Below, one piece after another: positions 34,502 to 39,050 of a stretch of 48,297 nucleotides of DNA. Numbering within the stretch: position 1 is the first letter of the stretch; each line of letters starts with the position of its first letter. The notes under the pieces are model-generated. The model was not told the DNA's origin. It saw only the letters and a list, made by a program, of their open reading frames with translations, and searched no databases. Origin of the DNA: Promethearchaeia archaeon (GTDB lineage: Archaea > Asgardarchaeota > Lokiarchaeia > Sigyniarchaeales > SOKP01); the NCBI GenBank assembly GCA_029856125.1, contig JAHQWJ010000032.1, positions 1 through 48,297 on the forward strand, given 5' to 3'. The translations under genes were made by a program, and so were the position numbers.

Positions 34502-35602
34502 ATGAATGAAATAGCTGAAAAAAATTTTGTAGTGGGAATTCTCGGGGATAATTTTGATATAAACAATTTAATAGGTCAATCTTTGGGTTCCCCAGGGACT
34601 AAATCTGATATTCTCTTTTACAATCGGTTAGATCAAACTTTAAATCAAGTATTTTGCGGTTTAACTCCTATAGATTATCCCGAAAAGATAAAACCGCTTT
34701 TACAAACTTTAGCCATATCTAATATTCATATTCTTGCTATAGATTTAACTATTGGATTAAATGCCTCAGTTGGAGAAATACTAGTTGGAATAGACATATT
34801 TTCAAAATTATATCGGACTAAAGTTTTGGTGGTAATCGCTGGAATAAATTCAAATACGGAGTGGAAATTACCTGAGACAAAAAAGAAAGTTCGGGCGATT
34901 TTGGATGATACTAGTTTGAAAAACGCACAAATTTTCGAACTTAGAGCCAAACAAGATTATGAAAATCTAAAAAGAATAATTGTGGAGCTTGGGAATGAGT
35001 TTCTACAACAAACTAGCGTTAACGAAGGAAACACGGAGGTGTTAGTTGACCACGTATTTCCTGTTAAAGGAATAGGGACCGTCATTCTTGGAATTGTAAA
35101 ACAAGGCGAGGTCCACAGTGGTCAAATGTTAGAAATAACGGGCTATGAATCCGCCGTAAAGAAAGTTATAATCAGGAGTATTCAAAAACACGATAGGAAC
35201 TTTAAAGTCGCTTACGAAGGTGATAGAGTAGGTCTCGCCTTAAAAGGTAATATTTCCCCTAGAGATCTAAGCCGCGACAACATTATTGTTACTCCTGGCA
35301 TCTTTGAGCAGGAAAAAGAAATAGATGCGGAAATTTTTGTAAGTCAATTCTATAAACCCAAAAATGGGACGATTACATCTAATGATGGAATCCAGTATTA
35401 CGGGCTAATTAAGTTAAAACTATCTCCTTTTAAATTTATTGAAGGTCAGAAAATTGCCCCTGGAAAAAGTGGTACTATGAAAATTCGTTTTGATAAATCG
35501 GTAGTCCATAACGGAAAAGGATTAAACGGAATTATCACTGAATTAAATCGTTTCGAGAATAAATTGCGAATAGTTGGATATTTTCAACAAACTAAAAAAT
35601 GA
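34502..35602 (+). CDS. SelB-like/EF-Tu domain II protein with degenerate G domain
   Basis: VDHVFPVKGIGTVILG, IRSIQKH, GDRVGLALKG (EF-Tu/SelB domain II); no GxxxxGK[ST] or NKxD motif. Confidence 0.8.
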   Translation: MNEIAEKNFVVGILGDNFDINNLIGQSLGSPGTKSDILFYNRLDQTLNQVFCGLTPIDYPEKIKPLLQTLAISNIHILAIDLTIGLNASVGEILVGIDIFSKLYRTKVLVVIAGINSNTEWKLPETKKKVRAILDDTSLKNAQIFELRAKQDYENLKRIIVELGNEFLQQTSVNEGNTEVLVDHVFPVKGIGTVILGIVKQGEVHSGQMLEITGYESAVKKVIIRSIQKHDRNFKVAYEGDRVGLALKGNISPRDLSRDNIIVTPGIFEQEKEIDAEIFVSQFYKPKNGTITSNDGIQYYGLIKLKLSPFKFIEGQKIAPGKSGTMKIRFDKSVVHNGKGLNGIITELNRFENKLRIVGYFQQTKK

Positions 35603-36932: not shown

Positions 36933-36969
36933 AATGTAAACAAGAGTTATGATAAACCCACCTCTCGCA

Positions 36970-37025
36970 GAGTATTCATCAAATAACTTTCCATTGCGGA
37001 TTTTTTTATTTGAATCATTATATTT
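36970..37025 (-). promoter_or_regulatory. Putative eukaryote-like SECIS element in the 3' UTR of the 37029 gene
   Basis: Minus strand: AUGA U UCAAAUAA AAAAA UCC GCAAU GGA AAG UUAUUUGA UGA A. AUGA/GA core, perfect 8-bp helix, unpaired A-run and apical mini-stem; the AUGA starts 10 nt after the stop. Confidence 0.65.
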
Positions 37026-37028
37026 GGT

Positions 37029-37955
37029 TTAATCATTGCAATCAACGGATTCCTTGAGATTAAGTTTAATGAAGGCTTCTTCTTGTTCATTTCTCTGGCT
37101 CGATTTAATCGATCTGTTTACTTGAGACAAAAACTTCATTGCTTTGATTTTACCTTCATTGATGCTTTTTATAAGTTCCTCCTTACTTAATGCTCCAGAA
37201 ATTGTTAGAGCTGTCTGAAACGACTGATCCGGTTTTAATGTTTTAAATTCAATTTGTAAAGCAGATAGAATCTCTCCTGGTTGGCCGTATAGCGTATTAG
37301 ATAGATTTAGTTTATCACTGCTAATATTAAAATTTTTAGTTAAACAAGTTTCATAAAATGTTGATCTAGATATTGGAGAAAATCCTCCAAATAAACCAGT
37401 GTCATCATATTGATAAATAACATCGTTCTCTTCGTCATATCCTGATAAATCGTTATCAAAACCGTCTAACCCATTGATATCAAAATCAAAGACGAAATAT
37501 AGAGAGAAGTCTAATAAATCATAATCTGATATGTTTTTTATCGTAAAGAATGCGTTAACATAGGGAACATTGGGGCGATTAAATACATCAATGTACAACC
37601 GAATCAGAGAATTCTGTTCACTAAGAACAATCGGTTTGATCTTTTTCTGTGCGATTAATTTTTTTAAGTATTCCTTTATATCAAAATCAAGTGTAATACG
37701 ATTAATCGTGGTTCCAATACGACTATTAACCATTTTATAGATCGGAGTTGATTCGACATTTTTTAGGAGTACACCAATAGGCTCTAAACTCTTGTTTTTA
37801 AGTTTAAAGCTAAACCACGGACCAGCATACACTTGTTCTGTCAGTGCTATAAGATATTTCCCTTTAAACATTAATTCTTTAATGGAAAACCCCATTAAAT
37901 AGCCAGATTGGTTTCAAGCAGCTAAAATCTCGTTGAATATAACTTTTAATACTAT
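37029..37955 (-). CDS. Hypothetical protein, candidate selenoprotein (in-frame UGA at 37914-37916); ORF track covers only 37029-37895
   Basis: SD GGAGGT 37965-37970, then ATA GTA TTA AAA GTT ATA TTC AAC GAG ATT TTA GCT GCT TGA AAC CAA TCT GGC TAT TTA ATG, in frame with the 288-aa ORF; SECIS-like hairpin downstream. Confidence 0.6.
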
Positions 37956-38063
37956 TTTTTAATAACCTCCTTGAATTGAATTTAAGATAATTACATTATA
38001 ATTTGAAATAATCTCAATAAATTAAGAATAAGTAAGTAATTTAAAACATTCGTATATTTGACA

Positions 38064-39050
38064 TTAAGCTTTTTCAATAAATCGATAAGCAATATAAAGG
38101 AACGCTTCGTTGACATTTTCCCCAGTGAGTGCTGATGTTAGAATGTAGTGAAAACCAAGTTCTTTAGCAACAATTTTTATTTCTTCTTCGGTAATTACTA
38201 ATTTATCCTGTAAATCTGATTTATTACCAACTATCACAACTGGTATATCACGTAAAACGGATTTTTTAATATCATCATACCATGTTTTTACACTTTCTAG
38301 ATTATTTGGACGGGTTCTGTCTATTACAATAAACGCCGCACTCGACCCTTCGTAAAACCTGTGTCTATATGGTGCCATTGAGCTGATTTGTCCTCCGATA
38401 TCCCACAAAACAAAATTTATTTTCGTGTCTTCGTCCATTACTACGGTTTTTTTTGAAATTTCAACTCCTATTGTTGAGATATAACTTTCTGAAAACAAAT
38501 TTTCAACAAATCTTTTAATTAAGGATGTTTTTCCTACTCTAAAATCGCCCGTTAAAATCAATTTTGATGTGAATTGACCTTTCGGTAATTTTCCTTCCCT
38601 TCTTTTCGATAAAACGCGAATTATTTCCGGTATCTCTGTAGAAACGTTATCAATTCCCTCAAGAACAAGTTCTACTTTCCCCGCTATATATTCAGAATAT
38701 ATTCGCAGTTCTAAATCAGATGTTGTAGGATCTGCTATAGTTGTCAATATTGAGCGTGAACCCATCGAGCAATACGCAAATTTCTTATCCTGCATCGATG
38801 TTATATTGAAAAAGTTACTCTGCGTTTGGAATTCGTTTTTTATACGATCGATATAAATGTCAAGGAATGCAGAAATAGCGCCCATTACAGAATCCGACTC
38901 TGTTCCGGCTTTTTCTTTGCTATCCGAAGCGATAATAAAACCATCTCTATCGCAAATTGCCACTGCAATAGCACCGTCGATATCGAACATGTAGTTTTCT
39001 AATAACGATTCAAGCAAATCAATATTGGGTAAACCTTCCATAGATCTCAA
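38064..39050 (-). CDS. Roadblock domain fused to Rab-like small GTPase
   Basis: N-terminal AVAICDRDGFIIAS roadblock pattern; G1 GDFRVGKT, G2 STIG, G3 WDIGGQ, G4 NKSD, G5 TSA. Confidence 0.92.
   Translation of the reverse strand: MRSMEGLPNIDLLESLLENYMFDIDGAIAVAICDRDGFIIASDSKEKAGTESDSVMGAISAFLDIYIDRIKNEFQTQSNFFNITSMQDKKFAYCSMGSRSILTTIADPTTSDLELRIYSEYIAGKVELVLEGIDNVSTEIPEIIRVLSKRREGKLPKGQFTSKLILTGDFRVGKTSLIKRFVENLFSESYISTIGVEISKKTVVMDEDTKINFVLWDIGGQISSMAPYRHRFYEGSSAAFIVIDRTRPNNLESVKTWYDDIKKSVLRDIPVVIVGNKSDLQDKLVITEEEIKIVAKELGFHYILTSALTGENVNEAFLYIAYRFIEKA

Follow-up and report, generated by a model that had tools for sequence, protein, structure and literature searches.

The window examined here is a stretch of 48,297 nucleotides (contig JAHQWJ010000032.1, C32 in our numbering) from a ~99%-complete metagenome-assembled genome (MAG) of a Loki-type Asgard archaeon (G000). 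Its minus strand, to which all window positions refer unless a plus strand is given, carries an open reading frame (ORF) annotated as a hypothetical protein of 288 amino acids, from ATG 37895 to TAA 37031-37029. The annotation appears to be truncated: the locus is very probably a selenoprotein gene that uses the known Lokiarchaeal selenocysteine (Sec) system. The full coding sequence would comprise 308 codons plus stop (37029..37955, from frame reading and the comparative coding signal), with an in-frame UGA at codon 14 (37914..37916, assigned by comparative analysis) as its Sec codon and a selenocysteine insertion sequence (SECIS) at its 3' end.

The region 5' of the annotated gene was read directly. 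A strong Shine-Dalgarno (SD) site, GGAGGT (37965..37970), also conserved in homologous loci, lies 9 nt 5' of an ATA triplet (37953..37955) that we take as the putative non-canonical AUA start codon, on the basis of column conservation, upstream stops, and the point at which the alignment with cysteine-containing relatives begins. The frame of the extension, KIVLKVIFNEILAA-TGA-NQSGYL-ATG, is open, with the TGA as the sole stop inside it, and is closed upstream by an in-frame TAA at 37961-37959. It translates as K-IVLKVIFNEILAA-U-NQSGYL-MGFS, with AAA-ATA at the 5' end and 18 sense codons around the one TGA. Neither ATG, GTG nor TTG occurs within the 20-codon extension. The first-pass annotation had pointed to the absence of an SD ahead of the annotated ATG 37895 and to the strong one before the in-frame extension, and both observations are confirmed; its placement of the SD, ATA, single UGA, ATG, TAA, and AUGA is correct throughout. 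The annotated ATG (37893..37895) would encode an internal Met21, as suggested by the missing SD, by a Phe at this position in the cysteine-form homologs, and by coding periodicity that continues through it. Near the other end of the frame, the codon of a conserved C-terminal Cys306 (37038..37040), invariant in Sec-form and cysteine-form sequences, encodes the candidate partner of Sec14.

Conservation of the reading frame and its start

The 288-residue protein has ~400 close relatives, which without exception come from Loki-type (Promethearchaeota) MAGs, bear the label "hypothetical," and have an invariant M-G-F-S as their called N-terminus. Upstream DNA was read at 80 homologous loci from species-representative genomes, with protein identities of 66-95%. 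The UGA is kept in all 80, at codon -7 in 76 and directly before an insert in 4, and a switch to a Cys or Trp codon is seen in none of them. The UGA-AUG distance is fixed at 18 nt in 76 loci. The extension follows the consensus (I)VLKVxFN[ED][IV][LF]A[AT]-U-[ND]xxGY[LVI]-MGFS, and its entropy at codon positions 1/2/3 (0.82/0.31/1.39) resembles in pattern that of the first 19 annotated codons (0.51/0.32/1.27), as opposed to 1.39/1.31/1.26 upstream of the SD; three-base periodicity is thus continuous across the UGA and the annotated ATG. The pairwise ratio of nonsynonymous to synonymous change (dN/dS) is 0.164 over the 12 codons preceding the UGA and 0.171 over the 6 that follow, while the two remaining frames have values of 0.745 and 2.61. 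This indicates that the frame is under purifying selection to either side of the UGA. Past the UGA, the G and Y codons ahead of the AUG show synonymous changes only. The upstream peptide is therefore conserved as protein, and the homologs do not begin at the methionine of MGF, an outcome that would have told against the extension put forward in the first-pass annotation.

In a gene taken from a MAG, one in-frame stop close to the 5' end could in principle be a recent nonsense mutation or a sequencing artefact. The same UGA in 80 independent assemblies, at 66-95% identity and with purifying selection on either side, refutes a pseudogene or assembly error, to which we assign virtually no chance.

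A library-wide HMMER search brought up more distant relatives, 24-30% identical, whose N-termini are 20-27 residues longer than that of the annotated protein. Three of these cysteine-form (Cys-form) proteins, P0130, P0131, and P0135, align gap-free to the extension, and in these as well as in P0134 and P0140 the Sec column (position 14) is occupied by the second Cys of a CxxC motif. Read together with the UGA of the close homologs, this column thus holds either UGA or Cys, the pattern by which the first-pass annotation had proposed to judge a selenoprotein. Positions 18-19 are G-Y in the Sec form, P0130, and P0135, and G-F in P0131; position 21 is Met in the Sec form and Phe in the Cys forms; at the C-terminus, D-C in the Sec form corresponds to W-C in the Cys forms. 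When P0130 is run by tblastn against this genome, its residues 1-316 cover C32:37955-37032 (E = 2e-25), a span that opens with the ATA and closes with the final codon, and no second genomic copy is found.

The Cys-form sister family has 41 members, including DSAG12_02345 of Promethearchaeum syntrophicum and NEF87_004727 of Ca. Lokiarchaeum ossiferum, both "hypothetical." It resembles the Sec form in length, in an alignment across the whole fold at 24-27% identity, in the N-terminal strand, and in the C-terminal Cys, and differs in having CxxC at the site of the Sec-form [LFI]-A-[AT]-U and Phe in place of Met21. The Cys-form proteins are annotated at full length and so evidently have ordinary starts. 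Among 29 Cys-form proteins, Cys14 and the C-terminal Cys never vary and Cys11 is at least 90% conserved; among 18 Sec-form sequences, the C-terminal Cys likewise never varies. With each position conserved in its own subfamily, the Cys14/Sec14 and C-terminal Cys pair is common to both. An earlier suggestion that the Cys near the C-terminus (DCND) could be a redox partner gains support from this conservation.

The start column was compared among 75 distinct upstream sequences. It contains ATA in 67, ATC in 3, ATT in 2, and TTG in 1, with ATT one codon later in the other 2; neither ATG nor GTG occurs there in any of the 75. The end of the SD 5-mer core mostly lies 10 nt (range 6-14) from the start codon in the homologous loci, and long ORFs of this genome show an 8-fold enrichment of SD-like 5-mers at -16..-4 (173 vs 22 of 2122). 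Many loci have an in-frame stop 1-3 codons 5' of the start column, which makes an earlier start impossible there. We infer from these conserved columns that initiation would take place at a near-cognate codon, AUA in this genome. The ATA start had been listed as a caveat in the first-pass annotation, a concern that does not hold up since the near-cognate start is itself a conserved feature. A conserved non-AUG start (AUU) is found in bacterial infC; as in infC-like genes, the near-cognate codon here persists in many species and follows a good SD, whereas the present case is from an archaeon, has AUA instead of AUU, and has no known autoregulation.

The 3' SECIS element

The coding sequence is followed by a 77-nt Lokiarchaeal (eukaryote-like) SECIS with an apical mini-stem (type II-like) and a side hairpin (36954..37030). 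The element is recognizable in 79 of the 80 loci, and these 79 form the alignment (A2) from which a four-helix model was derived. It starts within the stop codon; the AUGA lies 10 nt 3' of the stop and the UGA ~900 nt upstream. From the 5' side, the outer helix (37030-37026 with 36958-36954) is followed by the 5' side of the core, AUGA (37015..37018), in which A2 shows no variation at the first A, the G, and the final A and at least 90% conservation at the U. The 5' strand of the main stem (37006..37014) has nine positions that pair, with covariation, with 36978-36986, and leads into the apical region, which opens with an unpaired AAAAA (37001..37005), at least 90% conserved in A2 and a hallmark of Lokiarchaeal SECIS (lokiSECIS). 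The apical mini-stem UCC-GCAAU-GGA (36990..37000) is variable in sequence, with 89% of cells paired and both pairs co-varying, and the apical region ends with a conserved A-A-G (36989-36987). Then come the 3' strand of the main stem, with the conserved A-G ahead of it, followed by a U and the GA of the 3' side of the core (36976..36986, GA at 36977-36976), both letters of which are invariant in A2. Between the core and the outer helix lies a side hairpin, CUC-UGCGA-GAG (36962..36972), which is 95.3% paired and in which CUC/GAG changes to CCC/GGG and CCU/AGG.

The main stem as modeled (37013-37006 with 36986-36979) has eight Watson-Crick pairs, 99.8% paired, five of them with compensatory changes; a ninth, variable position (alignment columns 18/57) holds U.U in this sequence, with A-U, C-G, or U.G taking its place elsewhere in the alignment. 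Over the four-helix model as a whole, 95.4% of cells are paired and 14 of the 18 pairs have changed on both sides. None of 500 shuffles scores as high on any of five measures, and slid registers give only 26-50% pairing. The AUGA/GA core, the ~8-bp helix, the unpaired adenosines, and the form II-like apical mini-stem described in the first-pass annotation are thus present and conserved with compensatory changes. Its doubt about a weak helix 1 is not sustained, as all five pairs co-vary, and its account of the hairpin, sound as to the core elements, had missed the third small hairpin.

Published lokiSECIS elements are characterized by AUGA 5' of the stem and GA 3' of it, a 9-bp stem, an adenine run, a conserved A-G, and a position near the stop, and their apical part is either an 11-nt loop (type I) or carries an extra mini-stem (type II, SPS/selD) (Mariotti 2016, PMC4989117). 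Every one of these features is found here: AUGA, a 9-position stem, AAAAA, A-G, GA, a stop-adjacent position, and a type II apex. The apical region spans ~19-22 nt, not 11, and its co-varying mini-stem of 2-3 bp is that of type II. Neither the side hairpin nor the co-varying outer helix figures in the published lokiSECIS descriptions consulted.

A covariance model built from the 3' elements of this gene family only (R1) finds three further elements in this genome. One match (36 bits, C112:46820-46893) lies 3 codons 3' of an ORF for a Prx-like (PrxL) protein with WUHYU, a known Loki selenoprotein. Run unfiltered, R1 also matches C24:1763-1846, just 3' of a Sec-containing SelD gene (24.3 bits, E = 0.0013), with the same outer helix and side hairpin. 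The side hairpin, with its UGC-containing loop, is conserved in 79 loci and common to the PrxL and SelD elements, forming a three-way layout with the outer helix. As in the lokiSECIS and other Asgard genes with eukaryote-like SECIS, especially those of SPS/selD with type II elements (PMC4989117; PMC11227280), the UGA here would be recoded by a stop-adjacent element in the 3' untranslated region; unlike in the published Loki selenoprotein genes, Sec is 14 residues from the N-terminus, the start is AUA, and the element has a side hairpin and a co-varying outer helix.

Two other R1 matches in G000 adjoin short ORFs. The match at C8:48071-48145 (minus strand, 35 bits) lies one codon 3' of an ORF of ~60 residues, apparently a two-helix membrane protein, whose single in-frame UGA (...DILAUGNRV...) makes it a candidate micro-selenoprotein. 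The best extra match, C148:27094-27168 (minus strand, 43.6 bits), follows a zinc-ribbon-like ORF of ~37 codons (CxxC...CxxC) that ends ...FK-TGA-TAA, where the UGA could be either a C-terminal Sec or a plain stop.

Decoding of the UGA

The Sec machinery, whose presence the first-pass annotation had named as a check, is largely accounted for in this genome. Two SelD genes are present, with one in-frame TGA each, together with SepSecS (451 bits, above cut-off) and a full-length PSTK homolog (169 bits). The tRNA-Sec gene (C101:1260-1406, minus strand, 147 nt) adjoins SepSecS and contains two inserts, one of 27 nt following the anticodon loop and one of 30 nt within the T-loop; the position of the latter matches the one reported for Loki tRNA-Sec. 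The unspliced gene was missed genome-wide by RF01852 (sub-threshold tRNA-like matches), by ARAGORN (17 tRNAs, no SeC), and by two structural pattern scans, because the two inserts interrupt it; once spliced in silico, the 90-nt product is called tRNA-SeC(tca) by ARAGORN. It was located by synteny with the same-genus genome G006, where SepSecS, an uninterrupted tRNA-Sec (RF01852, 57.7 bits), and EFSec lie within ~6 kb.

The part of the check that did not succeed concerns EFSec, which is found in 5 of 8 same-genus genomes. Contig C101 is collinear with the G006:C19 region and ends just before EFSec, while C42 resumes after it; from this collinearity, EFSec of G000 would lie in an assembly gap between C101 and C42. 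The bacterial selB model was discarded as an EFSec finder, its matches being aEF1-alpha, aIF2-gamma, and a SelB-like pseudo-GTPase encoded in the window.

UGA is an ordinary stop in this genome, where it ends 256 of 1963 long ORFs, and genome-wide reassignment is rejected on these grounds. It also ends the selenoprotein gene itself in 10 of 81 loci. In these (e.g., L044, L046, L054, L060, and L075) the terminal UGA lies only 3-20 nt before the gene's own SECIS, and the UGA of codon 14 appears to be read through, so that the two UGAs of one mRNA would have opposite fates.

In the scheme that we favor, the ribosome would initiate at the conserved near-cognate AUA ~9 nt past the strong SD and read through the UGA of codon 14 to TAA 37031-37029, giving 308 residues. 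The UGA would be decoded by Sec-tRNA(Sec) delivered by EFSec and directed by the 3' SECIS, as in the established Sec pathway of Lokiarchaeia. The product is predicted to be a stand-alone beta-supersandwich with four short helices, in which Sec14, replacing the second Cys of the CxxC of the Cys-form relatives, may be paired with the invariant Cys306.

The UGA might instead be read through as Cys, Trp, or another residue by near-cognate or suppressor decoding. Such read-through would by itself explain the coding signal across the UGA, and it would agree with EFSec not being seen in the assembly. We nevertheless consider it extremely unlikely: the gene is followed by a co-varying SECIS that matches those of PrxL and SelD, the Sec pathway genes and tRNA-Sec are present in a genome where UGA is otherwise a normal stop, and a UGA kept in 80 of 80 loci with no switch to Cys or Trp fits a need for Sec itself.

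Several points weigh against a selenoprotein gene at this locus. All of the evidence is computational, consisting of sequence comparison and structure prediction. To our knowledge, AUA initiation has not been demonstrated in archaea, and the exact first codon is deduced from conservation and upstream stops. EFSec is not found in this ~99%-complete assembly, its presence being deduced from collinearity, and no Pfam family, including those of glycoside hydrolases (GH), matches the protein at E <= 0.1. Folding of the hairpin on the window sequence alone is not beyond chance (minimum free energy z = -0.89, with 34 of 200 shuffles folding equally well); it is the comparative evidence, namely the UGA in 80 loci, the coding signal, and the covarying 3' element, that lifts hairpin and extension above chance. 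The Rfam SECIS families give no match at gathering or relaxed thresholds, only chance-level matches to small RNA (sRNA) and C/D-box families; the same models likewise fail on accepted Loki SECIS (Mariotti 2016, PMC4989117).

In a two-cistron arrangement, a conserved 13-codon upstream ORF would end at the UGA and a main ORF would start, coupled or re-initiated, at the AUG 18 nt later, the hairpin then having another role, such as that of a terminator or a K-turn protein site. Annotation pipelines call the gene in this manner, Sec-form sequences without exception have AUG as codon 21, and four loci tolerate inserts of 28-32 nt, no multiple of three, after the UGA, as would be expected of an intercistronic stretch. 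The six codons that separate the AUG from the UGA nevertheless evolve as protein in the main frame (dN/dS as given above, 0.171), the Cys-form homologs run on through this stretch with Phe for Met, no SD precedes the AUG, and the SECIS, a match to those of accepted selenoprotein genes, is retained at every locus, those with inserts among them. We regard two cistrons as very unlikely.

The inserts are located directly after the Sec codon (L048:2951-2982, 32 nt; L051:2952-2982, 31 nt; L053:2954-2982, 29 nt; L074:2955-2982, 28 nt). Each consists of CUUG, a 3-nt bulge, a nominal stem of 8-10 bp, CAAG, and 3 nt, a bulge-helix-bulge geometry; the stem is perfect in L051 and L074 and interrupted in L048 and L053, and its sequence varies between loci. 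A canonical cut after the second nucleotide of each 3-nt segment, in the manner of tRNA splicing endonuclease, restores the intron-less sequence and the frame exactly. No outer helix, as a full bulge-helix-bulge motif would have, is apparent in the four inserts. The four loci form no clade, the nearest relatives of L053 and L074 being intron-less at 91-94% identity, and this patchy distribution points to gain or loss that probably happened more than once. On their geometry and the retained SECIS, we read the inserts as probable tRNA-type introns and reject them as a sign of two cistrons.

Predicted fold, gene neighborhood, and a probable new selenoprotein family

An AlphaFold2 model of the 308-residue form, built from an alignment of 37 sequences, has a predicted local distance difference test score (pLDDT) of 90.7 and a predicted template modeling score (pTM) of 0.89. 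It consists of a beta-rich body followed by four short C-terminal helices (residues 258-298), and residues 3-12 of the extension form a predicted beta-strand that leads into the next strand of the sandwich. The closest structural matches, 8rf9_A, 1ulv_A, and 1lf6_A (Z = 20.2, 19.9, and 19.4), begin at model residue 1. The GH-type matches in general have Z of 18-20 and root-mean-square deviations of 2.6-3.3 Å over 215-237 residues within model residues 1-280, at 10-14% identity, and Foldseek E values go down to 1.6e-8. The best matches are to the N-terminal beta-supersandwich of a cyclic glucan synthase GH94 module, of GH15 glucodextranase and glucoamylase, of GH94 phosphorylases, and of GH116. 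A beta-rich fold had been anticipated for the protein body, and the model and its structural matches bear this out.

The protein therefore shares its predicted beta-supersandwich with the N-terminal domains of GH15, GH65, GH94, and GH116 enzymes (galactose-mutarotase-like fold). Unlike those enzymes, it is a stand-alone module with a short helical tail, and the (alpha/alpha)6 catalytic barrel is absent from the predicted 308-residue protein. The relation is, on the model, one of fold resemblance only and not of membership in the GH15, GH65, GH94, or GH116 families. We know of no GH15, GH94, or GH116 N-terminal domain that carries Sec or a terminal Cys pair. Judging from their conservation, we see about even chances that Sec14 and Cys306 cooperate, either as a redox couple joined by a selenenylsulfide or by sharing a ligand site; of the two, a redox couple on a ligand-binding sandwich is the mechanism that we prefer.

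The strand contributed by the extension also bears on whether the gene might give rise to two products, a full-length Sec protein under selenium supply and, through a stop at the UGA and a restart at the AUG, a Sec-less form of 288 residues, with the weak AUA tuning their ratio. Met21 is invariant in the Sec form and Phe in the Cys form, the start is a conserved near-cognate codon at which AUG is never used, and the UGA-AUG distance is constant in 76 loci, all of which would suit such an arrangement. Many residues near Met21 are equally invariant, however, and call for no special explanation; the truncated form would lose a predicted sandwich strand, and the AUG is preceded by neither an SD nor any other initiation signal. 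We think production of both forms unlikely, and keep to the full-length selenoprotein as the probable product.

The gene directly upstream (38064..39050, minus strand) encodes a Ras-family GTPase fused to a Roadblock/LC7-like N-terminal domain (Pfam Ras, 4e-37; a weak N-terminal MAPKK1_Int match, Roadblock-type). In 77 of 80 loci the two genes are immediate neighbors with the same orientation, a median of 115 nt apart. That the selenoprotein acts with this Roadblock-Ras GTPase is speculative. One could imagine a selenium-gated switch, in which the weak AUA and Sec14 would yield either the full-length protein, with Sec14-Cys306 closing the termini of a ligand-binding beta-supersandwich, or the Met21 form, the whole acting as a redox- or selenium-sensing regulator of the GTPase. 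We hold this to be a long shot; if true, it would link selenium or redox state to the eukaryote-like small-GTPase system of Asgard archaea.

On the other side, 1.4 kb from the selenoprotein gene, lies a gene for a SelB-like pseudo-GTPase (34502-35602, plus strand; 366 aa, EF-Tu-like, SelB 73 bits). It was rejected as a candidate EFSec, having lost the G1, G3, and G4 motifs and being shorter than the EFSec of relatives (480-503 aa). It is found downstream and convergent in at least 29 of the ~65 loci with enough flank. Farther neighbors comprise an Eco57I-type methylase, a convergent DNA methylase, and a phosphodiesterase-family gene. These neighbors and the pseudo-GTPase gene may be there simply because related genomes are broadly collinear.

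The first-pass annotation had considered the protein unlike SelD, HdrA, Vhu, Fdh, or peroxiredoxin, and this agrees with the lack of a Pfam match and with a predicted fold that is neither thioredoxin, AIR-synthase, nor hydrogenase. Five Loki selenoprotein families were listed in 2016 (Mariotti 2016, PMC4989117), and a homology-based survey of >400 Asgard genomes gave seven, namely SelD, FrhA/VhuU, HdrA, FrhD/VhuD, Prx-like, AhpF-N-like, and DsbA-like (Huang 2024, PMC11227280). A May 2026 review repeats the seven-family list, and two further Asgard genome papers list known families only. Within the literature searched, the present family is absent from the selenoprotein lists of 2016, 2024, and 2026 and from the two genome papers, and by its lack of Pfam matches and its beta-supersandwich fold it belongs to none of the seven published Asgard families. 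As judged from sequence comparison, what is new is a selenoprotein family and not a mechanism, with the conserved AUA start and the unusual fold as extras. The family has been missed because it is new, because its Sec codon lies 14 codons from a non-AUG start, and because gene callers begin at the next AUG.

The family is present in at least 80 species-level genomes, and public databases hold its protein in truncated form only, without the probable active-site residue. The gene would serve as a clear archaeal example of conserved initiation at AUA. Its large co-varying set of type II Loki SECIS, with outer helix and side hairpin, may provide clues to what replaces SBP2 in archaea. While the published Asgard families, all of them identified through homology to known ones, are nearly all redox enzymes or thioredoxin-like, this family would put Sec on a fold not associated with selenoproteins.

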